NCBI GenBank assembly: GCA_028277185.1
Contig: JANQGQ010000026.1
Coordinates: forward strand, 1 to 64,000
Reading direction: 5' to 3'
Length of the DNA stretch: 64,000 nucleotides
From: Woeseiaceae bacterium
GTDB taxonomy: Bacteria; Pseudomonadota; Gammaproteobacteria; Steroidobacterales; Woeseiaceae
Part shown: in pieces, positions 16,556 to 49,669 of the stretch
Layout: each line of letters starts with the position of its first letter
Position numbering within the stretch: the first letter of the stretch is position 1
Made by a program: the position numbers and the translations under genes
The notes under the pieces: model-generated
The model's database searches: none
The model's input: the letters and a program-made list of their open reading frames with translations, nothing else
Told to the model about the DNA's origin: nothing

Positions 16556-16561
16556 ACAGAG

Positions 16562-16811: not shown

Positions 16812-16887
16812 ATGGTGATCCGGACAGGATTTGAACCTGCAATCCCGAGGTTGAAAGCCTCGTGGCTTAACCATTCGCCCACCGGAT
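16812..16887 (-). tRNA. tRNA-Glu(TTC)
   Basis: GATCCGG acceptor, anticodon arm CGAGG-CTTTCAA-CCTCG, T-loop TTCAAAT, CCA encoded. Confidence 0.8.
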
Positions 16888-17906: not shown

Positions 17907-17981
17907 TGGTGCCGACGAATGGTAACGATCCACTCTCTCCGGGGCTTCAACCCGGCGCTAATCCTTCTCAGCTACATCGGC
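17907..17981 (-). tRNA. tRNA-Phe(GAA) with an unusual T-loop (ATCGTTA)
   Basis: Acceptor GCCGATG/CGTCGGC, anticodon arm CCGGG-TTGAAGC-CCCGG, CCA encoded. Confidence 0.65.
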
Positions 17982-17995
17982 GTTGTTGGAGGATC

Positions 17996-18068
17996 TGGAA
18001 CCCTCTGAAAGAATCGAACTTTCATAAGCAGCGTTCGAAGCGCCGCCACCGGGTCCACCGGAGAGGGT
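17996..18068 (-). tRNA. Aberrant tRNA-like gene, anticodon region TCG (Arg-type), non-standard D-arm
   Basis: Perfect acceptor ACCCTCT/AGAGGGT, T-arm GAAAG-TTCGATT-CTTTC, discriminator T, CCA. The anticodon stem carries G·U pairs around loop CTTCGAA. The D region folds only as a CCGG/CCGG hairpin with no 8-9 spacer. Confidence 0.4.
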
Positions 18069-30495: not shown

Positions 30496-30533
30496 GAACG
30501 ATCCTCCTCTGCAATAGTCTTCCTGCTGTGCAC

Positions 30534-31181: not shown

Positions 31182-31276
31182 TTTTAGTCTCCGTCCGATC
31201 TGATGCGAACCCGGTGTCGCTCCATCTGCAAGGGGCAAGATGTCTGCCGAATCGCCGGCTAAAGCCAGATCGTCTT

Positions 31277-32101
31277 TCAGAATGTTGTCGATATGAAAAC
31301 GAGCACGGACGCCTGAGATTCCTCCCGAAATCTGACTTCCGTTTCCATCGCAGGCGGTGGCTGGTTTTCGACGAAACCGTCGCCGAGCACCTTTACGCCC
31401 TGATCAAGCATGAGACCGAAACCAATGTTGAAACTATTTGGTCCTTCCGCCCTTTTTATCCCCAACATGACGCCACCGCCGAACGACGTCAGGGTGTCGT
31501 CGCCGGCAGCACCGAAGTTGACAGCTCCAAACAAGCCGAAACCCGCTTCGCGGTTCCCGATTTCGAAGTCCCTCACGAAGTTGTGTACCTCCAGCACGAT
31601 TCTCGGGTCATTGCTAACGTCCTTCGTAACTCTCACCACGCCGTTTACGATTTCCGCCTCACTGACGCGGTCATCGCCCAGTCCGAATCCGGCACCGACT
31701 CCGATACCCCACTTCCAGCCGAGGAACTCATTGCTGTCACTGAGCTGCTTCGCGACCTTTTGTGACGAAACCAGAGCCCGATCGATCTGGGCAATTCCGA
31801 CTTCGGCTTCAGCCGCACGGCGGGCGGCTGCCACCTGCTTCTCCGATCCCGCAACACCCATCGTCGCTCTGACAAGCGTTCGGTCGCGTAGGGTTTGAAG
31901 GCAATCCTGATAGACTCTGTTTCGCGCTTCTTCGCTTAGGCCAACGGCGTCGCTCGCCTGTTTCTGGCAGTTCTCGATAGTCTGTGCGTCACCCTCGGCG
32001 GCGTGTGAAACCAAGCTCATGCCGAGAACCACAAAGGCAGCCGTAATCGACGAGGCCCGTCTACTGCCTTTACTCCAGCCATCACTGAATCGAAACATCA
32101 A
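31277..32101 (-). CDS. Secreted hypothetical protein (Gly/Phe-rich, possibly a beta-barrel)
   Basis: Signal peptide and alternating GFG-rich segments; no recognisable domain. Confidence 0.45.
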   Translation of the reverse strand: MMFRFSDGWSKGSRRASSITAAFVVLGMSLVSHAAEGDAQTIENCQKQASDAVGLSEEARNRVYQDCLQTLRDRTLVRATMGVAGSEKQVAAARRAAEAEVGIAQIDRALVSSQKVAKQLSDSNEFLGWKWGIGVGAGFGLGDDRVSEAEIVNGVVRVTKDVSNDPRIVLEVHNFVRDFEIGNREAGFGLFGAVNFGAAGDDTLTSFGGGVMLGIKRAEGPNSFNIGFGLMLDQGVKVLGDGFVENQPPPAMETEVRFREESQASVLVFISTTF

Positions 32102-32430
32102 GATTCACCTCCCCGAGTTAGTTGTCCGTAGGCATACGCTGCGCCTGCTCTCATCGTGTCGGACTCGAAACAAAGCGGCGTCATAGTGGTTCAGTGTTCG
32201 CAGCGATCCGTTAGTCGCACCAGTCCGTGTCTGATCTGTCACCTTTGCTGGCTCTGCTCACTGACCGGCGGTCGCCTTTGTAGAGAAACTCTCATGGGAA
32301 ATCAGTCTGTTGAAAGGCTTCGTCAAGGTGCCTTCACACGCTATAATGGTGTTTCAAAAAACGACAAGAACAACGCTGAGCTGCGATTCACTAGCTGCTC
32401 GCTGCATCCAACATCTGGACCATCTTCGCT

Positions 32431-33093
32431 GTGCGGGATAAGGACAACGACGCGGCCGAAGCCGGTGACGATCACGGTGAGGGCGTGAACAAACCGCGTG
32501 AACCGGGAACTACGCCGGAAGCTTCCAGAGCGTCGGCACTCGCGATGCGCATTGCCCGGGGAGACGATGTCGCGGAAAGCGAGATGGTCAGGCTCTATGA
32601 GCCTGGTATGCGTCGTATCCTCCGAACCAGGACGGACCGCCCGTCCGACATAGACGACCTCGTCAATCAGGTCTGGCTGCTCGCGTTACCCAAGCTGCGA
32701 AACGGCGAGCTACGCGATCCACGGGCCTTGCCAGCGTACCTGAATACGTTTACCCGACGGGTCGCGAGGAACTATCTTCGCCTTTCAGCTCGGAAGACCG
32801 GAACCTCGGATACGGATTTTGTCGAGCAACAGGCGTCGCCGAGCGAAGGCCCATATGTCCGCCTCAAGTGGACGCAAGCCGTGGAAATTGCGTCTACACT
32901 GTTGGACAAGCTATCTGTAGAACGGGATCGCGAGATACTGAAGCGATTCTTCGTCCATGGCGAGGAGAGAGAGCGTATTTGTCGGGAGTTCGGCCTCGAC
33001 GCCGTGCAGTTCAACAAAGTCCTGCACCGTGCGCGCAAACGTTTCAAGGACCTGGCGCACTCGAGTATCAGCGACCTGATCGGCGCTGAGTAG
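32431..33093 (+). CDS. ECF (sigma-70 family) RNA polymerase sigma factor
   Basis: Region 2 (…DLVNQVWLLALPKL…) and region 4 (…ILKRFFVHGEERERICREFGLDAVQFNKVLHRARKRF). A shorter 182-aa form starts at 32545. Confidence 0.7.
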   Translation: MRDKDNDAAEAGDDHGEGVNKPREPGTTPEASRASALAMRIARGDDVAESEMVRLYEPGMRRILRTRTDRPSDIDDLVNQVWLLALPKLRNGELRDPRALPAYLNTFTRRVARNYLRLSARKTGTSDTDFVEQQASPSEGPYVRLKWTQAVEIASTLLDKLSVERDREILKRFFVHGEERERICREFGLDAVQFNKVLHRARKRFKDLAHSSISDLIGAE

Positions 33094-33099
33094 AAGACA

Positions 33100-33825
33100 A
33101 TGGATCGAGATTACGTCGAAAGATACAACGTCATCGAGCGTTACGTCCTCGGAAAGCTCAGCGAAGAGGAGGCAGCGGCGTTCGAGGATCTGTTCGTCTT
33201 CGACGAAGAATTGCGAGGCGAGATCGACGTCGTGGAGAAGCTTATTCACGGTGTTCGGGAGAACGTTGAGCCCAAGGCATCCAAAGAGCACGATTCGGAT
33301 GTGCCGGCTCGGGTCAAGGAGCCGAATCTCGACGACGTTCGCTCAAAGGTGCCGGAGTACGTCGATGCCGGCAGGCGCCGCCGATACGCGCTGCCGTTTT
33401 CTCTGGCGGCCAACTTCGTTCTGGCTGTTGCGATGGTATCGCTGCTAGTCGATGGTGGCGGACCGTCAGATGAGCCCGGACAACTTCCGAGTCATATCAA
33501 TCCGCCTGCCGTTCACCTGGAAGTGGCGCGAGATGGTGACGGAGCGGTACCTCGACTGGAGACCGGTGACGGCTGGGTTACGCTGCTCGTTGACGCTTCG
33601 CTGACGGATGTCGGTTCGGTTCAGTTGCGGCTCGTCGACGGCGACGGGCAGGTCGTTGCGGAGACGGGGACGTTCGAGAACGATCCGGGCAGGCCCTGGG
33701 TCGAGTGGCTCGTCGAACGCGACCGTCTGCAGCGCGGCCGTTATCGTGTCGAGTTCAGTGCGGCGGAAGCCGCGACCGACAGTCCGATAGCATTCGAATT
33801 GGATGTCGTTCCTCCGGGGGAGTAA
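33100..33825 (+). CDS. Anti-sigma factor (ChrR/RskA-like N-terminal domain, single TM)
   Basis: N-terminus ERYVLGKLSEEEAAAFEDLF typical of anti-sigma domains; a central TM segment; 6 nt downstream of the sigma gene. Confidence 0.55.
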   Translation: MDRDYVERYNVIERYVLGKLSEEEAAAFEDLFVFDEELRGEIDVVEKLIHGVRENVEPKASKEHDSDVPARVKEPNLDDVRSKVPEYVDAGRRRRYALPFSLAANFVLAVAMVSLLVDGGGPSDEPGQLPSHINPPAVHLEVARDGDGAVPRLETGDGWVTLLVDASLTDVGSVQLRLVDGDGQVVAETGTFENDPGRPWVEWLVERDRLQRGRYRVEFSAAEAATDSPIAFELDVVPPGE

Positions 33826-36800
33826 CGATAGCGCGCGAAGACGCGCCGGCTCCGTGTCCGGCCGTTCGGCCTGCATCACGGCGCTGCTGCTTTTCGCAAA
33901 TGAGCCTGCAACGTCTTCGGAGCTGCGGCTCGAGATTGCTGAACCGCTGCGCGTCGAACTCGAGGGCGATGAGCAACACGTGTACGTCCTTCCGACGAGC
34001 GGAGCGCAAGGCGTATATGTGTTGATTCGTCAGCTCGGCGTGGACGTCGTTGTGACGGCCGACACGGCCGACGGCGAATCCTCGAAATGGGACGCGCCGG
34101 GTGCCGAGTTCGGCGTGGAAACTATCGAAGCAGGCAATGGCACGCGGGTTCTGGTCGCCGCCAAGAACCCAGGGGCGTCTGGAGGCAGTTACGAGATTCT
34201 CGTGCTGGATCCGGCCGGGCTGACGCCCGATCGGCGCCGTGCGTTGTCGCTGTCTGCCGGCGCAGGCGTCGAGTACGGAAGGGGTACGCAGGAGGGATAC
34301 AGCGAGGCCGGAGTCCGATACTCCAGGGCAGCCGCAGCCTGGTCAGCGATAGACGGCTGGCGCACGGCGTACTCTCACTATCAGGCGGCGACAGCGCATC
34401 GGCACTGGGACGAACAGAGTTCTGCACTGGAACACTACGAAATGGCGCTGGCGATACTGGAGGACACCGAGGAATGGTTTTTGCGCGGTCGCGTGCACAA
34501 CGGCATCGGCCTGATTCTTCTCGATCAGGGTCATCGAATCGCTGAAGCCAGAACCCACTTCGAAGCAGCGCTGGAGGCGGCGGAGGCAGTGAAGGATCAC
34601 ACTATCGTCGGAGCAGCGCTCAACAACATATGCCTCGTCGCCCGCCATCATCTGGGCGAGCTCCGGGAGGCCGCCGATTGTTATACGCGGGCTATCGCCT
34701 ACTTCGAGGCGAATGAGCGCGCGGACCAAAAGGCCTTTGCCACTTACAACCTTGCCGTCGTGCTCCGCGACCTCGGAGAGCCGGACGCTGCCCGGAAGCG
34801 TTTTGTCCAGGCGCTGCAACTCGTCCGCCAGCAGGACAACGCCTACGGAATCGCCAAGGTGTTGATCAATTGGGCCGAACTCGAACTGCAGACCGGTAAC
34901 TATCAGAGAGCCCTGAATCAGTCTCTCGAGGCTCAGGGCTTGTTCGACCGCGTGGGAAGAAAGAACGACACGGCCCGGGCTCATCGACTGCTCGGCCGCC
35001 TGTACGCCGAAACCGGAGCACCGGAACGCGCACGCACTCATTTGATACCGGCCCTGACGATCTTCGAAGAAGGAAAGCTCTACCGGGACGAGGCGGTGAC
35101 ACTGTTTCTGCTGAGCCGTCTGGCTTCGGACGGCGCCGAGGCGACCGCCAACCTACAGCGAGCGTTGAGTCGTGCCGATGACGATCCGATTCTCCAATCG
35201 CGCATCCGCCTCGAGCTTGCCGAGACGCTTCTTCTGACGGGCGATCTGGATGGCGCTGAAGAGCACATCGAAGCGGCCATGCAACTCGCCGATGACCGAG
35301 GCGCCGAGCTGCTCCGGGCGCAGGCCAGGCTGGCGTCTGCTCGTTTGCTTGCCGGTCGCGAAAGATGGCGGGAAGCGGCCGCGCAGGCAGTGCTTGCCAA
35401 GAAGAGTTTTTCCGGTATTCGGTACCGACTGGGAGAGATCGAGACGATCCTGCTGCAGGCGCGCTTGGCGGAGCATTTGACGACAGGACCGAGGAAGCGG
35501 GAGTTGCTCGTCGCGGCGATGCGCGTTATCGACGACTTGTGGTTGACGCTCGACGTGCCGACTCTTCGTGCATCGCTGCTCGCCGCGCACCGCGAGGCTG
35601 TCGAGCAGCTCGTGAACCTCGAACTGAATGCGAGCGGCTCAGAGAGCGCACCGCTCGCCGCACTGATATGGGTCGAGCGCAATCGTGCCAGGTCGTTTCG
35701 CAATACGGTGTTTGCTGCAGGCGGCCCGGACGATCGCAGGCTGGACGCGCTGGAAGGGAAGGTCACCGAAATGCGCTTCCTGCTGCAGCAGCTGTTGTCG
35801 GACGACTCGCCCGTCGACGAGTTCACGCGCACCCGACGCCTTGCCAGGATCGACACGCTGCAGGCACAGCTTGAGGGCGAAGTTGCGAGTATCCGCGATC
35901 AGATCGGCGACGTCTCGCCCTTCGAATTGAGGGCGCTCCAGAAGCGTCTGGCCGCCGATGAGGCTATCGTAGAGTTCTTTATCGGTATTGAAGACGTGGT
36001 CATTTGGTACATCGACAGGGATGTGGCAATGACGGCGAGGATCGACGACGCGGCAGCTCTTGAGGCGCTCGCGGTCGATGTCCACAACAGAGTCCGCGCC
36101 GAGCCGCAGACTTCCCGCGCCACTCACGACATGCTCGTGCGATTGCGCGATCAAACGCTTGGGCCCTTTTCTGCGCGCCTCGTCAACAAGCGTCGCTTGC
36201 TCGTCATCCCCGATGGCGGACTCTGGCTCGTGCCGTTCACCGCCCTTCCGGGATTCACCGATCCGCGACGGCCTTTGGTTCGCGATGCCGCGATTGCGTA
36301 CAGTCACAGCCTGGCAGCGGTGGGTCGTGCGAGCCCCGACCGCCGTCGCACCGATCCCGCGGGAGTCTCCGTGCTGGCTGTCAGCAACCCCGTCTACTCC
36401 GGCGACGCGTCTGCCAGCCGCAGCCTGCTGCGGCTACAGCCGCTGCCACGCAGTCGACATGAGGCAATCAGGGTTCTTGATGTATTTCCTAACGCGGAAA
36501 AACTTCACCTGACGTCGTACGAATCGTCGAAAGCCCGATTGCTGCAAACTCGCGGCGAGTTTACCTACGCTCTGCTTGCGGTTCACGGCGTGCTGAATTC
36601 CGGCTTCCCCGCGCTCTCGGGTCTGGTGCTGTCCGAATTGCAAGAAGATGGCAGTCTGGTAAACGGCTTTCTGAGCACAACGGAAGTGCGATATCTACCT
36701 TGGAGCGCCGAACTGACTTTCCTGAGCGGCTGCGATACTGCGGTTGGGCCACGCATCTACGGCGAGGGCCTGATCAGCCTTGCGAGGGAGTTCCTGACAA

Positions 36801-37030
36801 ACGGTTCCGCTGACGTCGTGGCAACGCGGTGGCAGGTCAACGACGCTGCGGCTGCCGAACTGGCGGACGCGTTCTTCAGCGCGTTGAGGCAGAACCCGGC
36901 GCAGCCCGATCTGGCTTTGCAGAAGGCCCAATTAGCTATCCTCGACGCGAGGCGCTGGCACCGCTGGCATTCGCCACGCTACTGGAGTTCGCATCTGCTC
37001 CTGACCCATGACTGGCTGACGCGCAACTGA
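33803..37030 (+). CDS. Large TPR-repeat protein with C-terminal CHAT (caspase-like) protease domain
   Basis: C-terminal CHAT His/Cys dyad context (…YALLAVHGVLNSGFPALSGLVLSE… and …LTFLSGCDTAVGP…); multiple TPR-like repeats N-terminally. Overlaps the anti-sigma gene end by 23 nt. Confidence 0.75.
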   Translation: MSFLRGSNDSARRRAGSVSGRSACITALLLFANEPATSSELRLEIAEPLRVELEGDEQHVYVLPTSGAQGVYVLIRQLGVDVVVTADTADGESSKWDAPGAEFGVETIEAGNGTRVLVAAKNPGASGGSYEILVLDPAGLTPDRRRALSLSAGAGVEYGRGTQEGYSEAGVRYSRAAAAWSAIDGWRTAYSHYQAATAHRHWDEQSSALEHYEMALAILEDTEEWFLRGRVHNGIGLILLDQGHRIAEARTHFEAALEAAEAVKDHTIVGAALNNICLVARHHLGELREAADCYTRAIAYFEANERADQKAFATYNLAVVLRDLGEPDAARKRFVQALQLVRQQDNAYGIAKVLINWAELELQTGNYQRALNQSLEAQGLFDRVGRKNDTARAHRLLGRLYAETGAPERARTHLIPALTIFEEGKLYRDEAVTLFLLSRLASDGAEATANLQRALSRADDDPILQSRIRLELAETLLLTGDLDGAEEHIEAAMQLADDRGAELLRAQARLASARLLAGRERWREAAAQAVLAKKSFSGIRYRLGEIETILLQARLAEHLTTGPRKRELLVAAMRVIDDLWLTLDVPTLRASLLAAHREAVEQLVNLELNASGSESAPLAALIWVERNRARSFRNTVFAAGGPDDRRLDALEGKVTEMRFLLQQLLSDDSPVDEFTRTRRLARIDTLQAQLEGEVASIRDQIGDVSPFELRALQKRLAADEAIVEFFIGIEDVVIWYIDRDVAMTARIDDAAALEALAVDVHNRVRAEPQTSRATHDMLVRLRDQTLGPFSARLVNKRRLLVIPDGGLWLVPFTALPGFTDPRRPLVRDAAIAYSHSLAAVGRASPDRRRTDPAGVSVLAVSNPVYSGDASASRSLLRLQPLPRSRHEAIRVLDVFPNAEKLHLTSYESSKARLLQTRGEFTYALLAVHGVLNSGFPALSGLVLSELQEDGSLVNGFLSTTEVRYLPWSAELTFLSGCDTAVGPRIYGEGLISLAREFLTNGSADVVATRWQVNDAAAAELADAFFSALRQNPAQPDLALQKAQLAILDARRWHRWHSPRYWSSHLLLTHDWLTRN

Positions 37031-39089: not shown

Positions 39090-39752
39090 TCAGTCGTAGC
39101 GTACGATGAAGTTCGGTTGTGCGTACTCGACGTCGTCACGGCCGGGCAGCATTTCGACCAGACTGATCGTAAGCGCGTTGACGTCGATCGACAGCGCCAG
39201 CTCCCCGGAAGGTAATCGCCGGGAAATCACCGGATAGTCGAAGCCCCTGATCAAAGGTTCTGCAAGTTCGGTCAGTGCCGGGTCCGGCTGGCGGCTGGCC
39301 GTCGGCGACATTCGCTCGAGCGCGGCGAAGCTTTGGCTGCCGTCGAGGAACGAAACGAGGACCTCCTCCCGGGCACGAGGAGAACTGCGATCCCCGGAGC
39401 TTCGATGGCACTCCGCCACGTCCGGTGCCTGGGAAACGTGCTCTTCGAGTGCGGTCAGCAGTTCGTCCGGGCGCACTTCGAGGATCAGCTCGCGACCGGA
39501 CGTGATGCGGGCTGCTTCGAACGGGATACCCGTTTCCTTCGAGAGTGCGGCGGCGAAGCGGTTGATCTCGCTGTTGAGTTCGCCGCCCTTGCTCAGCGAA
39601 TCGCCGATAACTTCGCCGATGCGTTCGTCACTCGAGAATTTGACGATGACTTCGGCGACGAACCCGGACTGCTGCGGTTCGTCGTTCGCCATCGAGCAGC
39701 CGCATACGGCCATTGCGAGAGCAGTCCCCGAAATCACTACCCAGTTAAACAT
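39090..39752 (-). CDS. Secreted protein ending in a subtilase-prodomain-like segment (…DVEYAQPNFIVRYD)
   Basis: Signal peptide. The C-terminal motif is almost identical to the prodomain end of the adjacent S8 protease (…DVEYAQPNYIVEIA). Overlaps the upstream gene by 8 nt. Confidence 0.5.
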   Translation of the reverse strand: MFNWVVISGTALAMAVCGCSMANDEPQQSGFVAEVIVKFSSDERIGEVIGDSLSKGGELNSEINRFAAALSKETGIPFEAARITSGRELILEVRPDELLTALEEHVSQAPDVAECHRSSGDRSSPRAREEVLVSFLDGSQSFAALERMSPTASRQPDPALTELAEPLIRGFDYPVISRRLPSGELALSIDVNALTISLVEMLPGRDDVEYAQPNFIVRYD

Positions 39753-40269
39753 GGCTTTGCGGCGCGCGTGGCGGCCGGCTCCAGAAAAAAAGAAAAGCGA
39801 TTGTCGCCACGGCCATCAATCCCTCGCCGATCCATTCGTGAGCGAAGGCGAACTGCCACGGCGAATAGACGCCTACATAATATAGACCGATCAGGCGCAG
39901 CGAGTTCAGAACGGCCAGCAGCAGCGTCCCGAGAGCGACGCCGGCTATCGCCTTGCCGGCCGGCATCGGCAGGGCGATGAGGAAGGCCGCAAGCACGAGT
40001 GCGGGTATCAGCACGGTGCAGCGATATCCGATCTGGATGCCGAAGCCCGTCGGATGGTGCAGCGTGGTGCCGTCGAGCGCCGCGGGCAGACCGATGGCGT
40101 TGAGCGACCAGTGAGTCGTCGCCGCCGTCGGGAGGTCGAGCAAGGCGACGACACCATGCTCGCCGCCGCCCGCAAGCAGTATCGCGCTCAGTGCCAGACA
40201 CAGCGCAGTTGTCAGGCGCCCCGGCGGAGGAATCCACGTCGCAGGTTGCCGAATCTCCGACGCTGCCAC
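39745..40269 (-). CDS. Short polytopic membrane protein, exosortase/archaeosortase-like (candidate sorting enzyme)
   Basis: 5-6 TM helices with a Cys (YRCTV), an Asn-x-x-Arg motif (LNSLRLIG) and a His (FAHEWIGEG) in the order seen in exosortases. At 174 aa it is shorter than classical EpsH. Starts 2 nt after the S8 stop. Confidence 0.4.
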   Translation of the reverse strand: MAASEIRQPATWIPPPGRLTTALCLALSAILLAGGGEHGVVALLDLPTAATTHWSLNAIGLPAALDGTTLHHPTGFGIQIGYRCTVLIPALVLAAFLIALPMPAGKAIAGVALGTLLLAVLNSLRLIGLYYVGVYSPWQFAFAHEWIGEGLMAVATIAFLFFWSRPPRAPQSHV

Positions 40270-40271
40270 GC

Positions 40272-42107
40272 TCAGGTCGCCGCCGTCTGACGGATCCTCC
40301 GGAAGTAAAGGGCGACCAGCGCTGCCAACAAAAGAACGAGCAGCAGGCCGGACAGGACCGATCCGACGGCGACGTCGGACGTTGCACGAACCGCGGCTCC
40401 GCTACCGGGCGCTTCGATCGTGATCTGCGCGCTGCCCCTGGTGATTGCGGTGACAGTCGAGGATGCGTTGCCCGATGCGTCGGTTGTGGCCGTGTTCGGT
40501 GAAACGGTTATGACCGCGGTGTTCGATGACGTGAAGCTCACGGTTTCTCCGGCTATGCCGGAGCCGCCGGCTTCCAGGCTCACGGTAAGCGTTTCGCTGT
40601 CGCCGTTTCGCAATCGCATGTTGCCGGGCGCGGTCAACGATGGCGGTCCGCCGCTCACGCCCAGGGCAGCAGCGGCATCGAGCAGACCGGCGCCGCAAGG
40701 CTCAGGGCACTGCGCCGCCGAGCGTGGCATTGCGGTGCTCTTGAGCGTCGCTTCGACTTGCTGCGGCGTCAGGGTATCGTCCGCGGCGAGCATCAGTGCC
40801 GCGACGCCCGCTACGTGCGGCGATGCCATCGACGTGCCGTTATAGAAGGCATAGCCGCCCTGCACGGTGCTCAGTACGCCGCCCGAGGGATTGCCCTGCG
40901 TGTCGCCCCCCGGCGCCAGGATGTCGATGGTGTTGCCGAAGTTCGAATACCTCGTCACTAGCTCGCCGTTCCGATTCCCCGCGGCAACCGTGATTACGCC
41001 GTCGCAGCTTGCCGGCATTGCGTTGGCCGCATCCTTCGCATCGTTGCCCGCCGCCACGACAACGGTAACTCCCCTGGCGACGACGTCATTGATCGCGGCC
41101 TGTGTGGCCGGTGAGCTCGAGCACGGAATCCCGGCGCCGAGACTCATGTTGATGACTTGCGCGGGATTCGGGTTGGCGGGCGTGCCCGGCACGGGCATGC
41201 CGGCGGCCCAGCGCACGGCGTCGTTGATGTCGCCGACGTTGCCGCCGCACTTGCCGAGCACGCGGACGCTCACGACGCCTCCCTGCCAGCTCACGCCGGC
41301 GATGCCGGTGCTGTCGTTGCTGTTGGTGACGCCGACCGTGCCGGCGACGTGCGTGCCGTGCCAGCTATCGCCGCGCGCTGGATTGATGAAGAGCGGCGGG
41401 CACTCACCGGCTGCGACGGCGTCCCCTTCATCGGTCGGATCGGCGTCGCGGCCGTCGCCGTCCTGCGACGTAAACGTGCTCGTGATCATGTCGTAGCCGC
41501 CGAGCTGAGTCGGCGAACTCGCAATGTCCGGGTGATTCGGCAGGATGCCGGTATCGATAACCGCGACGACGACGCCGGCATCGCCGGTCGTCACGTCCCA
41601 CGCCCGCGGCAGGTTTATGCCGCCCGCTGCCTGTCCGGAGCCGGTGCCGTTGTTGAAGTAGTGCCACTGCTGTGCATAGCCCGGATCTATAGGCTCGGCG
41701 GCGATCTCGACGATGTAATTTGGCTGTGCATACTCGACGTCGCCCCGTTCGGAGAGTCGTTTCGCGAGGTCCGCAGCCGAACGCGTCGCTTCCTCTACGG
41801 CAGCGGCCGTCGCGTAATCCTCACCGAGCGTAAAGATCATCTCGCCGCCCGAAGTCCGCGTGAGATTCGCCTCCCCGACGCCCATCGCCTCGAGCTGCGG
41901 TCCCGTCATCGGGTCCGCGCCTTCCTTGAACTTGACGATCACCTGGCCGGGTTCCCAGCGAACCTGCCGTTCCGCGTCGAGGACGACGTTCATCGCTTCG
42001 GTCGCTTCGGCGACGATTTCGATCTCTTGCGCGTCTGCCCCCGGGAATCCAAACGCTGTCGACGCAAGCAGCGTAGCGGTCAGGCGGCATATAGTTTTTG
42101 TATTCAT
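40272..42107 (-). CDS. Subtilisin-like serine protease (S8) with an N-terminal prodomain and a C-terminal TM helix plus Arg cluster (sorting-signal-like tail)
   Basis: Signal peptide (MNTKTICRLTATLLASTAFG), catalytic motifs (DTGI, HGTHVAG, GTSMASPHVAG), and a C-terminus …VAVGSVLSGLLLVLLLAALVALYFRRIRQTAAT. AAGGGGG SD before the ATG at 42105-42107. Confidence 0.75.
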   Translation of the reverse strand: MNTKTICRLTATLLASTAFGFPGADAQEIEIVAEATEAMNVVLDAERQVRWEPGQVIVKFKEGADPMTGPQLEAMGVGEANLTRTSGGEMIFTLGEDYATAAAVEEATRSAADLAKRLSERGDVEYAQPNYIVEIAAEPIDPGYAQQWHYFNNGTGSGQAAGGINLPRAWDVTTGDAGVVVAVIDTGILPNHPDIASSPTQLGGYDMITSTFTSQDGDGRDADPTDEGDAVAAGECPPLFINPARGDSWHGTHVAGTVGVTNSNDSTGIAGVSWQGGVVSVRVLGKCGGNVGDINDAVRWAAGMPVPGTPANPNPAQVINMSLGAGIPCSSSPATQAAINDVVARGVTVVVAAGNDAKDAANAMPASCDGVITVAAGNRNGELVTRYSNFGNTIDILAPGGDTQGNPSGGVLSTVQGGYAFYNGTSMASPHVAGVAALMLAADDTLTPQQVEATLKSTAMPRSAAQCPEPCGAGLLDAAAALGVSGGPPSLTAPGNMRLRNGDSETLTVSLEAGGSGIAGETVSFTSSNTAVITVSPNTATTDASGNASSTVTAITRGSAQITIEAPGSGAAVRATSDVAVGSVLSGLLLVLLLAALVALYFRRIRQTAAT

Positions 42108-42154: not shown

Positions 42155-43780
42155 TCAGTCGCCGGGTGTAGTGGCGAAGCCCTGCTGACTGACCCAATCT
42201 CTCATCTCGAAGAGCAGAGGATCCTCCCGATCCTCGAACTCGATCTGTACAGCGCCTTCGAACCATCCCGTTACGCGTCGGCGCAACAGCGCCTCGGCGG
42301 ACTCGAGCGCCCGTCGGCGAACGCGCCGCTCGACGTTTTCCACCGATGTGTTGATGCTGCGGGTGACGAAGGAGCCAAGGTTTTCGTCGACCTTTTCCTG
42401 CGGACCCTCTTCCCATGCCTTCTTGCTGCCGGTCTGTACGACGAAACTCGTCCGGCGATCGCTGGACAGCCGCGCAGGCCTCTTGAGCCGCACCGTGGCC
42501 GTGGTTTCGCCGGCGAACGGCCGCGGCGGTCGAACGGCGGTCGGTGCCACGGCGCTGCCATATACGATGTTGGTGACGTCACGCTGAAGGTAGAGCCCCT
42601 CCTGATCGAACCAGTACCAGGGGCGCCAGGCCGTATCCATGCCGAACATCGTCGAAATGGTCACCTGAATAGCCCCGAGCCCGGCCGCGTCGGCGAGCAA
42701 TGCGGATTCCTCGGCGCCCCATGTCCTGAGCCGTAAACGTGCAGTCTCGATTTCCTGCGCCAGGTTGCCGGCGACGGTCGCCGCGGCGTTCGGATCGAAT
42801 CCGCTTATCTCCACCGGCGCGATTCCGTCAGGCTCCACGCCGGCCATCGCCGCGGCCCCTTCATGCGGCAGGATGTCCTGCGCCGAGAGCCAGACGCGCT
42901 GTCCCATCAGCTCGGTGAGCTCGGCCTGACCCGTCGTAATGGTCTCCGCCGAGCGTTGCCAGGCCGCCGTCAGTAACTCGCGCCAACAGACCGGTTGATC
43001 GGCCGCGGCGACCTCGGGCGTTCCGGGTTCCGGCGGTTGCGCGATACAGGCTCCGGTGACCGCGTCGACGAGCGTGGCCGCAGCGAACTGCGCCTGCTTC
43101 ATATGAACGAGTTTCACGCCGTCGCGATCGAGTACTTCCCATACCTCCTGTTTCAGTAGCGTTCGCTGGGCACCGTCCTCGTTCTTGCGCATACAGGAAC
43201 GTGTGTGAACGGCGGGTTGAGCCTGCGACCCCAGCGGATGCATCGCGAGGATCTTCGCGGGAGGAAACGCAATACCGGACAAATCGTCCAGAGCCGATCC
43301 GCTGCCCCTGCGCGCGGTCACCTGGCGTTCGAGGTTCTCGCGAAACTCAGCGAACGACGGGTAGCCGATCGCGATCTCGTAAGAGTGCACGCAGTACCGG
43401 AACGACTTGATGCTGACCTCGGCGCCAGTCTCTGAATACAGCGCAGCGTACAGGTCGGTGTTGTCGATCTGCCGGTCGAGGATTCGGGGAAGCGAGTACT
43501 CCTTGCGGTTCGAGCCGGTTTCCGGGTAGGTGATCCAGAGGAGGTCGACGCCGGCAACGCTCGTTACGAGCTGGTCGTTGGCTTCGAAGCCTTCGACGCG
43601 TGAGATAGTGAACGAATCGAATTCCGCGGTGCTTTTGAAGAACGACAAGATTGCCTTGCCGATCGACCAGGCCAGCACGCCGAGCAGGATCACGATCAGC
43701 AACGTCACCCAATTGATGACGTTCTCGAACCGGTTGAGAATCGTGGAGGGCAGGGGCATTGGGGTCTCCTGATCAGTCAA
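42155..43780 (-). CDS. Hypothetical membrane-anchored protein (541 aa)
   Basis: One N-terminal TM segment; its start overlaps the upstream gene by 8 nt (operon). Confidence 0.5.
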   Translation of the reverse strand: MTDQETPMPLPSTILNRFENVINWVTLLIVILLGVLAWSIGKAILSFFKSTAEFDSFTISRVEGFEANDQLVTSVAGVDLLWITYPETGSNRKEYSLPRILDRQIDNTDLYAALYSETGAEVSIKSFRYCVHSYEIAIGYPSFAEFRENLERQVTARRGSGSALDDLSGIAFPPAKILAMHPLGSQAQPAVHTRSCMRKNEDGAQRTLLKQEVWEVLDRDGVKLVHMKQAQFAAATLVDAVTGACIAQPPEPGTPEVAAADQPVCWRELLTAAWQRSAETITTGQAELTELMGQRVWLSAQDILPHEGAAAMAGVEPDGIAPVEISGFDPNAAATVAGNLAQEIETARLRLRTWGAEESALLADAAGLGAIQVTISTMFGMDTAWRPWYWFDQEGLYLQRDVTNIVYGSAVAPTAVRPPRPFAGETTATVRLKRPARLSSDRRTSFVVQTGSKKAWEEGPQEKVDENLGSFVTRSINTSVENVERRVRRRALESAEALLRRRVTGWFEGAVQIEFEDREDPLLFEMRDWVSQQGFATTPGD

Positions 43781-45044
43781 ACGGCAGCGTGAACATGCCG
43801 CTCTCGAATTCGGCGTCGGCCTTTTGCCGGCGAATGAGGGCGAGTACCGATCCCGACCTGAAATCGCCGTCCGCGACAGTGTTCAGCCGTTGTTGCAGTT
43901 CCCGGGCTTTGTCGCCGCTCGAGCCGAATCGAATGCGTTCGTAGCCGTTGACGAATTCAGCGCTCCGCCCGGCGGCAAGCGCTCCTTCGAGGCCGGTGAG
44001 CAGCACGTAGCGGTAGGCCCGGCCGTCGTCCGACGTTCCCGGCGTTGCGGCAAGGCCCGCGGCGCGGCGAAACTCTGCCCATGGCCCGCTGACCCGGCCG
44101 TTACGATGCGAGCCGAGAACGACCTGACATCCTGCAGAGGAGTAATACGGCGGTGAATTGCGGCCGTAGAAGTGCGCGGCATGAATATTGTCCGCCGGCC
44201 GCCCCACCTCCCAGCCTTCGGACGGATCGTTGCTTTTGTATATCAGATCGTTGCCGGTACGGACGACGACGACCCTATCGGCCTCCCGAAAAGCCCCGTG
44301 CTGCGGGTTGCTGCTGTTGGCGCGGTGGGTGCCGACGGAGTACCGGTACATACCGGTAGGCAGCAGGTTGCATCCTGCTATCGCGTACCGGTACAGGAAC
44401 ATGTACGACACTTCGGGCACGGTCGAGCCGGGAAAGAGCCGCAGTCTGTCGGCTTCCCGGTCCCAGACGCCGAGTACGCAACGCGGTGCCATGTGATTGG
44501 GCAGGGTCCATTTCAGCGGATGCGACGGCGCCCAGGCGGTCGCATCGTCAGTATTCGGGATGAGGCAGCCGCGAAGGCCGAACAGGACCCTGGGGTTGCT
44601 GCCGAGGTCGTGGAAATGGTTTCTCTCGATCAGGAACTTCAGGGTGTCCAGCGATAGCTCGAAATCCTCAGCGGGCGGCGAGTACGCGCCGAGATGCGCG
44701 TAGTCGTTGGACTCGGCAAGCGGTGCCCACGCTGGCGGTTCGCGATCGGGTTTACGCCACCACAGGCGGTTCTCGCGAATGTCGTTGATGATCTCACCCA
44801 TGATCTGGAAGCCGGGATCGACCGACAACGGATTCCAGGCCGCCGCGTGCTCTTCGCCTGACTGGCCGTGCGCCGATGCCGCAAAGCCCGCGGCGCCGCT
44901 TGACGGGACACCCAGACGGTCGGATTCCTGAATGAGGAAGCGAATGAGCTCCTCGTCGTCGCCCGGCGAATGACAGTCCGCGCGTGACGCGGACAAGGGT
45001 ATCGATGCGGCGACGAGGGCCTCGAGAAAGCGTCGTCTGTCCAT
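43773..45044 (-). CDS. Hypothetical Tat-secreted protein (423 aa)
   Basis: Twin-arginine motif (MDRRRFLEALVAASIP); no recognised domain. Confidence 0.5.
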   Translation of the reverse strand: MDRRRFLEALVAASIPLSASRADCHSPGDDEELIRFLIQESDRLGVPSSGAAGFAASAHGQSGEEHAAAWNPLSVDPGFQIMGEIINDIRENRLWWRKPDREPPAWAPLAESNDYAHLGAYSPPAEDFELSLDTLKFLIERNHFHDLGSNPRVLFGLRGCLIPNTDDATAWAPSHPLKWTLPNHMAPRCVLGVWDREADRLRLFPGSTVPEVSYMFLYRYAIAGCNLLPTGMYRYSVGTHRANSSNPQHGAFREADRVVVVRTGNDLIYKSNDPSEGWEVGRPADNIHAAHFYGRNSPPYYSSAGCQVVLGSHRNGRVSGPWAEFRRAAGLAATPGTSDDGRAYRYVLLTGLEGALAAGRSAEFVNGYERIRFGSSGDKARELQQRLNTVADGDFRSGSVLALIRRQKADAEFESGMFTLPFD

Positions 45045-45395: not shown

Positions 45396-48300
45396 ATGCG
45401 TCACGGGCGTTTCATCGGTGTCATCGCTATTCTGATCGGTCTGTTTCCGACCGCTTTCCCTACTCAGGCCCAGGAGGGGCGGATCGAGCCGACGGGCTTC
45501 GAAACGATGATCAGGCAGAGCCTGCAGAAGGGGTCCGCGCCCGGCAACTACATTGTCATCGCGCCGGCCTTCGAACGCGACGGAGTATTCATCGCCGACG
45601 ACAGCGGCGAGATCTACGTCTACGAACCCGATCCTCCCTACGACCAGCGCCGCCTGGTCAGAAACCCGGTAAGGCTGGCGAGCTTCGACGCCTGGTCGAA
45701 AGGCGTGTTCGATCCGCGTGGCCTGGCAATAGTCCGGGACAAGCTCTATTTCTTCGATGGCGAAACGCGTCGGCTGTGGTCCTTCGATCTCTGGGAGGCA
45801 GATAGCCAGAAACCGCAGCCTTTCGAGACACGCCTTCAGGACCCGACTTACATGGCGGTTTCACCGGACGGCGTCGCGGCGGTCACCGACTCGGGCAAGC
45901 TCCTGTTCCTGCAGGAAGACGCGGAGGCGTTCGTATTCGAAGGCAGGCGCTTCCCCGCCCCGGCGGGACTGGCGTTCTCCGATTTTGACAAGCTGCACGT
46001 CCTCGACAGGGAACTCAACGCCGTCGTCACCATTACGTTCAACCGCCGGACGGACGGCCGGATTCGGGTTCTTTCCGAGGAGCAGTCGGTCATCCTCCCG
46101 CGCGAGGACAGTCAATGGCAGGCGATGACGGTTTACGACGGCATCGTATATCTCGCCGATCAGGAGCGCGTGTACGCGTACTTCGAGGCCGAGGGAAAGT
46201 TGGTCCCGGTCGTCTCGGGCTGGTCGCGCTATTACAACATCAAGGACATCGCGCTTTCGGAATCCGGGCTTTTCGTGCTCGACGGGACCGCACTCGAATT
46301 CGTACCGCGTGCCGAGCCCGTGGACCTCGTGCTCGATGGCGACGTTACGAGCAGCCAGAACGCGCTGACCAGCCTCTATGAGTATCTGTTCTGGCGCGAT
46401 ATGTTGCCGACGAAGCGCATCCGTGCCCGCAAACAGTACGATTCCGTTCAGGACTTTCTTTTCGATTACGGTGCCATGATCGCGCCGCCGGAGTATGCCG
46501 AGCCCGACGTCCGCTTCGTGTTCAACCGGGAGCAGAAATCCGCCTACCAGCTTCAGGGGAACGAGCTGTCGCGATTCGATCTGCGCGAGCAGCGCCTGAA
46601 TCGAAACGAGTACCATGAAAGCGACACCGATTTCCTGGTCTGTACGCTCAACGAGGCTCAATGCGGGCAGCGGGTCGTCGAGCAGAACACGGTACTGGAA
46701 ATACCCGACCTGACGATCGAGCGGCGGCTGGGGCGCAAGCGGATCGAGCTGCAGCGGCCCCTTGGCAGCTACATCGAAGAGCTTGTCTACGACAGAACCT
46801 TTCGCGATGCCATCAGTCCGGCGTTCATCAAGCGGCTGAACCCGCCGCTCAGGGATCTTGACGATGCGGAGGTCTACGCCGTGCGAAGCGGTACGGCCGT
46901 CGTTCCCGTCGAGCAATGGCTCGTGACGGTCGCGGTGCCCAGGGCCGAGTTCGAAGACTTCGATTCCGAGCTCTGGAGCATCGTTGCGGGCCACGACGGC
47001 GTTGACCTTCTGCCGCGCAGGGGCATTTCGGCGAAGGCGGCTGCGCTCACGACAATGGACCACCATGGCGGCGCGGCCGGCGGCGGTTCGGCAACGGATC
47101 ATTGCGCCATGCTGGCCGAAGAGCACAAGGCGTGGTTCCAGGCGATCAACTACCCTAAGAATTCGGCTGGCAAGTTGCTCTGGCCGGATATAGCCGACAA
47201 GCGGGTGCGTATCGGCGTTCTCGAGAAGAGATCGACGCTGCTCGATTCGCATCAGATCTTTGGCCTCGACCCGGGCCGGCCGACGTGGCATTCCTTCAAC
47301 GTACTCTCCGAGCTGGTGCCGAATCCGGCACCGACGTCCTACAACAGCGGCACGCAGGCCGTACTGGACAGCGATGAGTACTCGAGCAGCGCCAATCACG
47401 GGACGCACGTGTCCGGGATCATCGCGGGCCGCGACGGCAACTGCTGGTCCGGGCTCTTGCCCAGCGCCCGGCTCACGCTGATCGACTTGACCAACGAGTC
47501 GAGCATGCCGAGAGAAATCAGGAAGGCTGTCGACGAGGACGTCAGGGTCTTCAACGTCAGCTACTCGTGGCCAGCCAATGAAGCGACGCTGTTCAACGAG
47601 ATCAGGACGTTCGACGACGCGCTGTGGGTTGTCGCCGCGGGCAACGACGGCGAGGATCTCGACGCCGTGGCCGAGGCCTCCGTTCCGGTCCCCGCTATCT
47701 GGGGCGATCGGCCAAACGTCGTTACGGTCACGGCGTCCGACGCGAACGGTCTGATTCTCGAACACGTAGTAACCCCGGAGGGACCGATTCCCGGCGCCAA
47801 TCGCGGCAAGAAGTTCGTGGACCTCGTCGCGCCCGGCATGGACATCTACAGCGCCAGCGAACAAATGAAGTACGGTCCCGCAACCGGGACCTCTCAGGCA
47901 GCGCCGCAGGTTGCCGCTGCCGCGGCGTTGCTCGTCGACTGGCTCGGAGAGCGGCTGCCGCCGGGCGATGCGAAGGCGCGGCTCATCGCCACGGCCGACT
48001 GGCTGCCGTCGTATGAAGGCAAGGTCTGGGGCGGGCGCCTGAATTTCGGTGCGGCCGTGATGTATCCGGACCGCAGCCTGCTGCAAACGAAAACGGGCGT
48101 TCAGACCGGCGAGTTTCACTCCATCGAGCCGTCCAACAACCCGAAGATCCGGATCGAAAACGTAACGCAGTACTACGAGAGGGACACCGATTCCGGCGAG
48201 GAGGCGCCCGAGCTCATCAGGTTCCGGAACATTCTGTCGCTGCGCCGGCACACAGACGGAAGCTATCGGGTGGTGTTGCGCGAGAGGGGCACGAACAAAC

Positions 48301-48503
48301 TCAAGATCATCCTCGACGCTCAGTTGGCCGACGTCCCGGGCACTTTCGGTTCGGGAAGAATCCAGTGTCAGAGCTATGAGAAGTACAACGAGGCTACCGG
48401 CGTCTTCGAGGACAGCGAAGGCTGCGCTGCCGGCATCTCGGTAACCCAGATCGAGAATTATGTGCAGGGCGGTCGGTATCAGATCGAATGGGGCTCGGAA
48501 TGA
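45396..48503 (+). CDS. Large secreted S8 subtilase (1035 aa) with a roughly 640-aa N-terminal region of unknown function
   Basis: Signal peptide. Subtilase motifs appear only in the C-terminal third (NHGTHVSGIIAG, GTSQAAPQVAAAAALL). Confidence 0.75.
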   Translation: MRHGRFIGVIAILIGLFPTAFPTQAQEGRIEPTGFETMIRQSLQKGSAPGNYIVIAPAFERDGVFIADDSGEIYVYEPDPPYDQRRLVRNPVRLASFDAWSKGVFDPRGLAIVRDKLYFFDGETRRLWSFDLWEADSQKPQPFETRLQDPTYMAVSPDGVAAVTDSGKLLFLQEDAEAFVFEGRRFPAPAGLAFSDFDKLHVLDRELNAVVTITFNRRTDGRIRVLSEEQSVILPREDSQWQAMTVYDGIVYLADQERVYAYFEAEGKLVPVVSGWSRYYNIKDIALSESGLFVLDGTALEFVPRAEPVDLVLDGDVTSSQNALTSLYEYLFWRDMLPTKRIRARKQYDSVQDFLFDYGAMIAPPEYAEPDVRFVFNREQKSAYQLQGNELSRFDLREQRLNRNEYHESDTDFLVCTLNEAQCGQRVVEQNTVLEIPDLTIERRLGRKRIELQRPLGSYIEELVYDRTFRDAISPAFIKRLNPPLRDLDDAEVYAVRSGTAVVPVEQWLVTVAVPRAEFEDFDSELWSIVAGHDGVDLLPRRGISAKAAALTTMDHHGGAAGGGSATDHCAMLAEEHKAWFQAINYPKNSAGKLLWPDIADKRVRIGVLEKRSTLLDSHQIFGLDPGRPTWHSFNVLSELVPNPAPTSYNSGTQAVLDSDEYSSSANHGTHVSGIIAGRDGNCWSGLLPSARLTLIDLTNESSMPREIRKAVDEDVRVFNVSYSWPANEATLFNEIRTFDDALWVVAAGNDGEDLDAVAEASVPVPAIWGDRPNVVTVTASDANGLILEHVVTPEGPIPGANRGKKFVDLVAPGMDIYSASEQMKYGPATGTSQAAPQVAAAAALLVDWLGERLPPGDAKARLIATADWLPSYEGKVWGGRLNFGAAVMYPDRSLLQTKTGVQTGEFHSIEPSNNPKIRIENVTQYYERDTDSGEEAPELIRFRNILSLRRHTDGSYRVVLRERGTNKLKIILDAQLADVPGTFGSGRIQCQSYEKYNEATGVFEDSEGCAAGISVTQIENYVQGGRYQIEWGSE

Positions 48504-48523
48504 GTACGTAAAGGCGACGGGAA

Positions 48524-49669
48524 ATGAGTATGCAAAAACAACTCGAAAGCCGGCGCGGAAGTCCGCGAACCCTGTTCCTCCTGCCGCTCGTGTTTGCGGC
48601 CTGGCCATGGTCGATGGCGGCTGCACAGGGGATCGCGGAAGAGCGGGCACGGGTAGTCCAGCAGATCGGCGATGTGAAGGAAGACGATGTCATCCTCTTC
48701 CCGCTGCGGGCCGACCCCGGGCTCGTATTCAGCCAGCGAGTCGTGGAGCCTGGCGCCCAATTTCTTCGCCTGTTCTTCGAGATCGACCGGCCGGGCGCCG
48801 ATTGGGGTCTCCAGGTGACGCAAGGCGAAGACGTTCTGTGGGAAACCTCCGAAGCAGAGATCGACGGCGATGGATTCTGGTCGCCTCAGTTCGAGGCCGA
48901 GCAACTCGACGTCTCGATCTTCAGCGCGACGAGTAACAATGAGCTGAGGCTGATCCTGAGCCGCGTCGTCGTCGGTTCCAGCAAGGGTACGCCCGAGTCG
49001 ATAATCGAGCCCAACCAGCTTACGTCGATCAATGGCCAGGATGCCTGGATTCTCGAGCTCGGGCGATCGGTGGCACGATTGCGGATTGTCGGCGACTTCG
49101 GCGGTACGTTTACGTGCACCGCGTTTCTCGTCACGCCGGAACTCATGCTCACCAACCAACACTGCATCGCATCGAACGCCGAGGCAATATCGACGAAGGT
49201 AGATTTCGATTTCGACGTGCCGGGCCCGCCGGCCGAAGTCGGCGAACTGGTCGAGCTGCTGGATTCCGACTTCGACCTCGACTACGCCGTCGTGCGTCTG
49301 AGACAGCCCGTCGGCCGAACGCCCCTCGAACTCGACCTCGTGCGTCCCGACGACGACGATCAGCTACTCATCATCCAGCATCCGGGTGGGCAGCCAAAGC
49401 AGATCTCGCTGGCCGACTGCACGGTCGACGGCAAACTCGTCCAGGGCCGGGGTTCGGGGATGACGGACTTCGGCCATCAATGCGACACGCTGGGCGGCAG
49501 TTCGGGTTCGCCCGTGATCGACTTCAGTAAAAGAAAGGTGGTGGGACTCCATCACCTCGGTATCGCGGACGGGTCGAACGATCTGTTCAATCGCGCGGCG
49601 CTAATGGACCTCGTGATGGCCGACATGGAAGACGAGGTCCGCGTCGAGATCGAGAGAGGTCAACCGTAG
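48524..49669 (+). CDS. Secreted trypsin-like (S1) serine protease
   Basis: Signal peptide with His (TNQHCI), Asp (LDYAVVRL) and Ser (GGSSGSPV) motifs. Lies 20 nt downstream of the large S8 gene. Confidence 0.7.
   Translation: MSMQKQLESRRGSPRTLFLLPLVFAAWPWSMAAAQGIAEERARVVQQIGDVKEDDVILFPLRADPGLVFSQRVVEPGAQFLRLFFEIDRPGADWGLQVTQGEDVLWETSEAEIDGDGFWSPQFEAEQLDVSIFSATSNNELRLILSRVVVGSSKGTPESIIEPNQLTSINGQDAWILELGRSVARLRIVGDFGGTFTCTAFLVTPELMLTNQHCIASNAEAISTKVDFDFDVPGPPAEVGELVELLDSDFDLDYAVVRLRQPVGRTPLELDLVRPDDDDQLLIIQHPGGQPKQISLADCTVDGKLVQGRGSGMTDFGHQCDTLGGSSGSPVIDFSKRKVVGLHHLGIADGSNDLFNRAALMDLVMADMEDEVRVEIERGQP

Follow-up and report, generated by a model that had tools for sequence, protein, structure and literature searches.

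Sorting signals of the exosortase family are defined by a tripartite architecture of a motif, a transmembrane (TM) segment and a basic cluster, a Cys, an Arg and a His residue form the proposed catalytic triad of the enzymes, and the dedicated one-to-one systems in Haft's description regularly have the enzyme and its target as consecutive genes (10.1101/2023.06.07.544157). According to the same paper, archaeosortase A (ArtA) is the sole branch for which experiments have proved that the tail is removed and that this removal is coupled to the attachment of a lipid (10.1101/2023.06.07.544157). Exosortases are widespread but in bacteria almost unstudied biochemically, in part because most of them serve dozens of substrates in complex exopolysaccharide (EPS) loci. 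Here we describe a locus of three genes from a Woeseiaceae bacterium (assembly GCA_028277185.1, contig JANQGQ010000026.1, positions 1 to 64,000; this whole 64-kb stretch is hereafter called the window), which encodes an S8 protease with a sorting-type C-terminal tail, an exosortase of 174 amino acids (aa) and a protein with two propeptide-like modules. The locus is probably a dedicated sorting system of the XrtH/IPTL-CTERM type, in which one enzyme and one neighbouring substrate are joined to a trans-acting propeptide.

An exosortase acting with a tripartite C-terminal signal in dedicated form is known already, and of the named classes XrtH (TIGR04177) with its IPTLxxWG-CTERM signal (TIGR04174) comes closest. 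The similarities to this class lie in the short enzyme, the XrtH model being 158 aa long, and in the linked tails of the relatives, which read V-P-[DT]-L-x-x-[W]-G followed by a TM segment and Arg residues. In contrast, the window enzyme scores below the XrtH cut-off (66.7 bits against 86), the window tail lacks both a model match and the Pro, and the system is one-to-one with an S8 protease and has a tandem propeptide-like gene in addition. XrtA/PEP-CTERM belongs to the same superfamily (PF09721) and follows the same tripartite signal logic (PMC1569441; 10.1101/2023.06.07.544157). The XrtA enzymes are, however, much longer and serve many substrates in EPS loci. The accessory periplasmic domain EpsI is sometimes fused to the exosortase, whereas the accessory protein of the window is a protease propeptide homologue and not EpsI. 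Archaeosortase A of Haloferax volcanii, which acts on PGF-CTERM, is likewise a homologous Cys/Arg/His enzyme, but it is archaeal, with another motif and many substrates, and its mechanism serves as an analogy only.

On the protease side, the free inhibitors of MEROPS family I9 (yeast PBI2, Pleurotus POIA1 and Arabidopsis SPI-1) are propeptide homologues that bind the mature subtilase. Like these inhibitors, the third protein of the locus is a free homologue of subtilase propeptides; unlike the I9 inhibitors it is bacterial and tandem-duplicated, has a signal peptide or lipobox and is coupled or fused to an exosortase, and its inhibitory function is putative. The closest solved catalytic domains are those of AprV2 and BprV from Dichelobacter nodosus and of the Pseudoalteromonas S8 proteases (3lpa, 3ti7, 5yl7 and 7w2a), with E-values of 1e-67 to 2e-87, the comparison covering the catalytic domain alone (query residues 137-487). 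An S8-dedicated exosortase clade with a tandem propeptide-like partner and fusions has no description in NCBIfam release 20 or in the searchable literature, where a search linking exosortase, subtilisin and propeptide returned nothing relevant and one on XrtH or IPTL-CTERM almost nothing.

Architecture of the three-gene locus

The three genes lie on the minus strand in the order S8 protease, exosortase and third gene. The features are as follows, all on the minus strand.

40272..42107, minus: S8 (subtilisin-family) protease gene, the cargo; open reading frame (ORF) of 611 aa, stop codon 40272-40274
42027..42107, minus: predicted Sec signal peptide, protease residues 1-27, MNTKTICRLTATLLASTAFGFPGADAQ; the Logan gene call has the same 611-aa start
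41700..42026, minus: protease propeptide, residues ~28-136, ending in ...GDVEYAQPNYIVEIA; PF22148 match at residues 43-130 and mature starts of homologues
40656..41699, minus: protease catalytic domain, residues 137-484; phmmer match to 7w2a_A at residues 139-483, E=2e-87
40374..40607, minus: Big_1-type Ig-like domain ahead of the tail, residues ~501-578; Pfam PF02369 at residues 502-575
40347..40379, minus: position of the signature motif within the sorting signal, residues 577-587, SDVAVGSVLSG, a degenerate version of the family's V-P-D-L-S-x-x-G; from the alignment of 46 tails
40302..40346, minus: hydrophobic TM segment between motif and basic cluster, residues 588-602, LLLVLLLAALVALYF; mean Kyte-Doolittle hydropathy 3.05
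40275..40301, minus: C-terminal basic cluster, residues 603-611, RRIRQTAAT; third element of the tripartite architecture
39745..40269, minus: short XrtH-like exosortase, 174 aa, the predicted sorting enzyme; TIGR04178 and PF09721
40018-40020, 39904-39906, 39895-39897 and 39838-39840, minus: exosortase codons of Cys84, Asn122, Arg125 and His144, respectively
39090..39752, minus: tandem propeptide-like protein, 220 aa, signal peptide with lipobox-like V-C-G-C19; stop codon 39090-39092
39402..39665, minus: first propeptide-like module of the third protein, residues 30-117, beta-alpha-beta-beta-alpha-beta; from hhalign and the AlphaFold2 (AF2) model
39093..39362, minus: second propeptide-like module, residues 131-220, ending in DVEYAQPNFIVRYD at the stop; hhalign 97%, E=1.5e-11 to the S8 propeptide

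The exosortase starts with a GTG 2 nucleotides (nt) past the protease stop (...acc tga gc gtg...), and the ATG of the third gene and the exosortase stop overlap by 8 nt (ATGTTTAA), so that the exosortase is translationally coupled to both partner genes. A re-reading of the ORFs left the positions, the gene order and the 2-nt gap as they had been placed in the first-pass annotation, a model's reading of the same DNA.

That annotation had taken the 174-aa product for an exosortase-like protein, and it is a true member of the exosortase/archaeosortase family, with 36.6 bits on TIGR04178 (cut-off 23) and 31.7 bits on PF09721 (Exosortase_EpsH; cut-off 25.7). XrtH was the best named model for the window enzyme as well as for all of its 30 nearest homologues (best E-value 1.4e-23), while the XrtA model gave just 18.9 bits. 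An exhaustive HMMER search found 909 relatives, 96 of them at E<1e-10 and three at E<1e-30, compared with the 2-5 retrieved by a word-indexed protein search. In the alignment of the 30 nearest homologues the residues H72, G75, F76, C84, N122, R125 and H144 are invariant, and the predicted exosortase-like order of Cys, N-x-x-R and His is thereby borne out as Cys84, Asn122-x-x-Arg125 and His144. The AF2 model, with a predicted local distance difference test (pLDDT) score of 86, forms an all-helical bundle in the membrane, to which residues 64-79 add a small beta unit; its helices at residues 16-34, 42-58, 87-99, 104-135 and 137-163 agree with the polytopic membrane protein that had been proposed. 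Neither Foldseek with the model nor a sequence profile found a match in the PDB. The enzyme is indeed much shorter than those of the XrtA type, as first observed, but exosortases of 150-170 aa are established classes in NCBIfam (XrtH, XrtM, XrtX, XrtY, XrtR, XrtP and ArtB) and the small size is therefore not novel per se. An identity as a DoxX or CPBP protein was also considered and was rejected, no such match being present in Pfam or NCBIfam, where the enzyme matched no unrelated family at all.

The cargo is a member of peptidase family S8 (PF00082), scoring above the cut-off with an intact Asp/His/Ser triad; its Pfam matches are Peptidase_S8 (173.6 bits), Big_1 (34 bits) and Fervidolysin_NPro-like (22.9 bits), and the catalytic D185, H253 and S426 together with N355 are invariant among the S8 proteases of the triad loci. 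The mature chains of the solved homologues 7w2a, 5yl7, AprV2 and BprV, which are also the nearest solved structures, start at the position of protease residue 137-138, which places the probable end of the propeptide at ...DVEYAQPNYIVEIA (residue 136). At its C-terminus the protease reads ...SDVAVGSVLSG-LLLVLLLAALVALYF-RRIRQTAAT and ends there, and thus shows all three elements of a sorting signal, the motif position, the TM helix and the Arg cluster. The hydrophobic helix and the basic cluster of the first-pass annotation were confirmed, although the last four residues had been left out. A lenient six-frame screen of the 64 kb found the protease to be the sole ORF with a complete tail of the helix and Arg-cluster type; one further ORF ends in ...PAWRAARVPVVTAFQGGE without an Arg cluster. 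The tail does not recur elsewhere in the window; similar tails are found in homologous loci of other genomes.

Co-variation of the tail and the exosortase

The species-representative genomes of GTDB, one per species, were scanned with an alignment of four triad proteases as the query, which yielded 80 loci with 77 complete S8 proteases, and every ORF in these loci was searched with hidden Markov models for the exosortase and the third protein. Among the 77 proteases, 38 have both the tail and an adjacent exosortase, whose homology starts 3-124 nt downstream, none has the exosortase without the tail, two have the tail only (L022 and L030) and 37 have neither (Fisher p=6e-20, with kinship among the loci ignored). 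The tail thus co-occurs with proteins of the 174-aa type, a point on which the initial proposal had depended. The tail-less set includes ten close relatives (>650 bits) that have other C-terminal domains in place of the tail. The same co-occurrence is seen in L002, L005-L010, L011, L014, L101 and L102. In metagenomes (L001, L016 and L017 from the same organism, and L005-L010, L013, L014, L018-L020, L101 and L102) the flanking genes differ, while the order remains constant, with an S8 protease of 607-618 aa carrying the S8 and Big_1 domains, an exosortase of 171-180 aa and a protein of 214-248 aa. The arrangement of the module is not due to chance, since dozens of genomes that are not related to one another share the gene order, and since tail and exosortase vary together. 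A search of genome and metagenome contigs with a five-sequence exosortase alignment gave no loci; the S8 alignment gave them instead.

Every tail-bearing cargo for which the domains were checked against precomputed Pfam annotation (window, L001/L016/L017, L005-L008, L014 and L101) keeps Big_1. The locus L011 (1-2868) has a non-S8 cargo, a BNR/Asp-box-like protein that ends in Big_1, a helix and an RRRRSRVRRV tail and is followed by a related exosortase (32% identical); the Ig-like regions of this cargo and of the partial cargo in L002 align with the window Big_1. Because a non-S8 cargo carries the same tail, the tail travels with the enzyme and not with the protease fold. The gene past the exosortase in L011 encodes a DUF3108-like protein and not a propeptide mimic.

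As in the dedicated systems, the enzyme and its target are consecutive genes, the exosortase being adjacent in 38/38 loci. No second convincing tail-bearing ORF was present in the window or within 5 kb at the 38 loci, a match in L039 being likely spurious. That the TM and Arg tail would behave as the cognate sorting signal of the adjacent exosortase is supported by this distribution. The 38 linked loci all come from uncultured metagenome-assembled genomes (MAGs), which may be why the module has so far remained unstudied, and they belong to Gammaproteobacteria, Burkholderiales, Hyphomicrobiales, Desulfobacterales, Terriglobia, Thermoanaerobaculia, Gemmatimonadota and NC10. The gammaproteobacterial MAG CAVOJU01 contains three near-identical copies of the three-gene module on contigs 39, 40 and 2 (L056, L057 and L058), and as each copy ends a contig, a repeated or mobile region at which the assembly is interrupted is suggested.

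An alignment of 46 tails gives the consensus V-P-D-L-S-l-x-G, followed by ~17 hydrophobic residues and R..RR, and the Terriglobia tails with VPTLADWG correspond to IPTLxxWG with V for I. The tails of L005 and L045 reach 14.9-15.0 bits on IPTL_CTERM (TIGR04174; cut-off 20.5), and some tails match midcut_by_XrtH weakly. The midcut-by-XrtH neighbour (NF033207) was not found, the third protein having no NCBIfam match at E<=1. Two enzymes linked to S8 proteases pass the XrtH cut-off of 86, those of L049 from a Methylobacter MAG (89.8) and L064 from NC10 (89.6), whereas L021 (83.8), L046 (81.8), L037 (74.9), L034 (68.9), the window (66.7) and L023 (35) do not reach it, and more divergent enzymes pair with more divergent motifs, such as the Burkholderiales KVSALSW. 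From the enzyme scores and the motif divergence, the clade straddles the edge of XrtH/IPTL-CTERM. The suggestion of an undescribed sorting-enzyme family therefore has to be withdrawn, as exosortase H is the class at whose edge these enzymes form a clade, and the view that the tail lacks a known signature applies to the window tail, which fits no CTERM model, but not to those of its relatives, which carry an IPTLxxWG-like motif.

The window motif itself (DVAVGSVLSG) has lost the Pro that the nearest relatives keep, as in DVAVVPLFSG of L101, whose exosortase is 58% identical, and in GVAVTPLATI of L102. This raises the question of whether the tail in this genome is now a mere membrane anchor, with the exosortase being lost or serving substrates elsewhere. 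The loss of the conserved Pro/Asp, the window reading VGSVLSG where L101 has VVPLFSG and the family has V-P-D-L-S-x-x-G, and the lack of fit to any CTERM model are in line with such a decay, as are L022 and L030, the closest S8 relatives in GTDB, which have degenerate-motif tails and no exosortase and from which it follows that a tail can persist as a plain anchor. We nevertheless regard this as rather unlikely for the window, as its exosortase retains every invariant residue and remains translationally coupled to both partners, and as strain variants from three samples have an identical tail and third gene and a single V->L change in the exosortase in two of the three. These variants differ by 0-1 positions in the exosortase and the third gene, too few for selection analysis. 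Moreover, many lineages with Pro-less motifs, such as those with KVSALSW, retain the exosortase, so that motif drift is normal in this one-to-one system.

The tandem propeptide-like partner

The third protein on its own has no family match above threshold in Pfam or NCBIfam, but its C-terminus (LVEMLPGRDDVEYAQPNFIV) is identical to the end of the protease prodomain (LAKRLSERGDVEYAQPNYIV) in 13/20 positions (E=3e-5), a resemblance already pointed out in the first-pass annotation. The homology extends over both halves of the protein. The first module matches the S8 propeptide in hhalign with 96% probability (E=2.5e-9), the second with 97% (E=1.5e-11), and the two match each other with 98% (E=3.9e-14), while the Fervidolysin N-terminal prodomain (PF22148) is matched by 8/11 members of the family at E<0.01 (best 4.5e-8). 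The AF2 model, with a pLDDT of 85 (>90 in the first module) and a predicted template modelling score of 0.76, has two modules with the predicted beta-alpha-beta-beta-alpha-beta order of the open-sandwich fold; fold searches gave generic ferredoxin-like matches, which are compatible but not diagnostic. The idea of a trans-acting propeptide or inhibitor-chaperone is therefore upheld as regards the homology, while the role itself is putative.

In the window clade the signal peptide of the third protein has a lipobox, V-C-G-C19 in the window and MSGC, VIGC and LIGC in relatives, and elsewhere in the family it is an ordinary signal peptide. The 220-aa start is favoured over the 207-aa Logan call because the homologues P0158 and P0160 begin with MLNWQ... 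and MRNWQ... and have the lipoboxes MSGC and VIGC, respectively.

The C-terminal end ...DVEYAQPNFIVRYD aligns within one residue of A136, the last propeptide residue, so that the third protein, in the manner of a propeptide already processed, stops within one residue of the putative cleavage point. The hexapeptide that follows ...QPN is more like that of its own partner protease than like those of other loci (BLOSUM score per residue of 0.77 against 0.42 +/- 0.11; 32 loci), a likeness reached by 7/5000 shuffles and exemplified by the pairs YIRRVV/FIRRRM, YIERPF/YIETIR and FRVYPV/FRMRAF. Many family members, however, run 10-17 residues past the ...QPNxxxxxx position. Trimming of such an extension by the protease, as with a true propeptide, is conceivable, and together with the propeptide homology this would suit an intermolecular foldase that the protease needs in trans for folding and afterwards degrades, with no lasting part for it in inhibition or regulation. 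Subtilase propeptides serve as chaperones and inhibitors alike. A function as a foldase only is nonetheless very unlikely, given that the protease retains a full propeptide of its own and does not obviously need a second foldase, and that the third protein of the window clade ends where the cleavage site lies, as a product inhibitor in its finished form would.

The distribution of the third gene follows the protease rather than the enzyme. The gene is present in 30/38 exosortase-linked loci, where it lies downstream of the exosortase or, in divergent orientation, upstream of the protease, and was not seen within 5 kb in the remaining 8/38; it is also found in both tail-only loci and beside five tail-less close S8 relatives without an exosortase (L053, L054, L065, L066 and L070), and it is absent from the locus with the non-S8 cargo. 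As it is kept beside exosortase-less S8 proteases and missing from L011, the third gene tracks the protease subfamily and not the sortase. In L053, L054 and L066, and also in L065 and L070, the tail is replaced by a Cys-rich end, ...NCFDPDC...CETTPG.

Physical links to the enzyme are nevertheless recurrent. The third protein is fused to the exosortase C-terminus via an extra hydrophobic linker in P0005/L102, P0026, L026 and L027. In the Burkholderiales loci L023, L024, L025, L033, L041 and L042 the third ORF is in frame with the exosortase past a single stop; in five of the six an ATG is located four codons past the stop, with three codons between, L033 being different, and the sister Rubrivivax MAGs L026 and L027 lack the stop and encode the two as one fusion protein. 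Read-through of the stop codon was considered for the Burkholderiales and set aside, the ATG four codons past the stop and the true fusions in the sister genomes being the simpler explanation. Fusions in at least four lineages, and the translational coupling of the two genes in the window, could indicate that the third protein is primarily an EpsI-like accessory or adaptor of the exosortase which recruits the protease, and is not an inhibitor or chaperone. Such a role seems unlikely to us, since the gene is kept next to the five tail-less and the two tail-only proteases without an exosortase and is lacking both from the non-S8 cargo locus and from eight of the exosortase-linked ones; a function as a sortase accessory in the strict sense does not appear to be supported by this pattern. 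That the third protein is repeatedly fused to the sorting enzyme hints at a coordination of sorting with protease activation.

Proposed mechanism and genomic neighbourhood

The three family memberships, the gene order, the co-variation of tail and exosortase, and the third protein's homology to the protease propeptide and its co-variation with it are direct observations, from which a possible course of events can be outlined for a dedicated one-enzyme, one-substrate system. The S8 protease would be exported by Sec, and the helix at its C-terminus would keep it tethered in the inner membrane, the Arg cluster facing the cytoplasm. The exosortase, whose Cys84, Arg125 and His144 are predicted to be near the periplasmic face, would then recognise the segment ahead of the helix and remove the tail, possibly with a coupled transfer onto an anchor by analogy with ArtA. 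The third product would be a periplasmic protein, in the window clade a lipoprotein, with two tandem subtilase propeptide folds, and its C-terminus may fill the substrate cleft of the protease as a product-like inhibitor and/or act as a folding chaperone. The tethered protease might be held in check until sorting is done, and the third protein may meanwhile stay at the exosortase. In this outline the cleavage, a transfer of whatever kind, the inhibition and the place where the protease ends up are inferred.

It is possible, if on balance doubtful, that sorting and zymogen control are physically coupled, with the tandem-propeptide protein, docked on or fused to the exosortase, holding the tethered protease inactive by its product-like C-terminus and presenting it for tail removal. 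If true, protease activation would be gated by completed C-terminal processing, the third protein would represent a new class of exosortase accessory that is specific for its cargo, and the module would be the first in which a sorting enzyme is wired to a trans-acting propeptide.

Several points weigh against a dedicated XrtH-like system in the window. Two close S8 relatives (L022 and L030) keep the tail without an exosortase within 5 kb, the window motif VGSVLSG is without the Pro of its nearest relatives and of the family consensus, and the tail matches no NCBIfam CTERM model, IPTL_CTERM included. The window third protein scores 12.7 bits on PF22148 (E=0.17), below the cut-off of 21. The Fisher and shuffle tests ignore phylogeny, and as the tail screen spans 64 kb, the enzyme may have substrates elsewhere in the genome. 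The S-layer protein of the NC10 bacterium Methylomirabilis lanthanidiphila is reported to carry an IPTL-CTERM (PMC8671808), and the NC10 genome CSP1-5 (L064) has the S8-XrtH-like module, so the NC10 enzyme may serve more than the protease. On balance we favour a dedicated system. We know of no biochemistry for any exosortase H.

The module is a minimal transferable system of one enzyme, one easily assayed substrate, a subtilase, and one small partner, and it could show how a bacterial exosortase acts on its substrate, at which point of the tail the cut is made and whether transfer to an anchor takes place. With the tandem propeptide-like partner it would also offer a case from bacteria of a subtilase propeptide that acts in trans.

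Two overlapping minus-strand genes upstream of the protease, 42155-43780 and 43773-45044 (541 aa and 423 aa, respectively), have no Pfam match, and the 423-aa protein has an RR-containing, Tat-like N-terminus. They accompany the module in the window organism only and were not counted as its parts. The sole sigma-70-like promoter match on the minus strand, at 45171-45142, lies upstream of both. The surroundings are rich in proteases (29212-37030 and 45396-49669), none with a sorting tail. They include a second S8 gene at 29212-30495 that adjoins a gene for a DUF4257 protein, an ECF-type (extracytoplasmic function) sigma factor at 32431-33093 followed by a 1075-aa TPR+CHAT protein at 33803-37030, a 1035-aa protein at 45396-48503 that has an S8 domain at its C-terminus, and a Trypsin_2 protease at 48524-49669.

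Farther away in the window, 15 tRNA genes form an array within ~4 kb of the minus strand (14317-18384), in addition to 12494-12572, with the specificities Ile, Val, Lys, Ser, His, Ser, Pro, Ile, Glu, Phe, Arg, Leu, Asp and Asn and an odd call at 17298-17372 with the 4-base anticodon 'ccaa'. The GC content of this stretch is 0.56-0.59, below that of the rest of the window.

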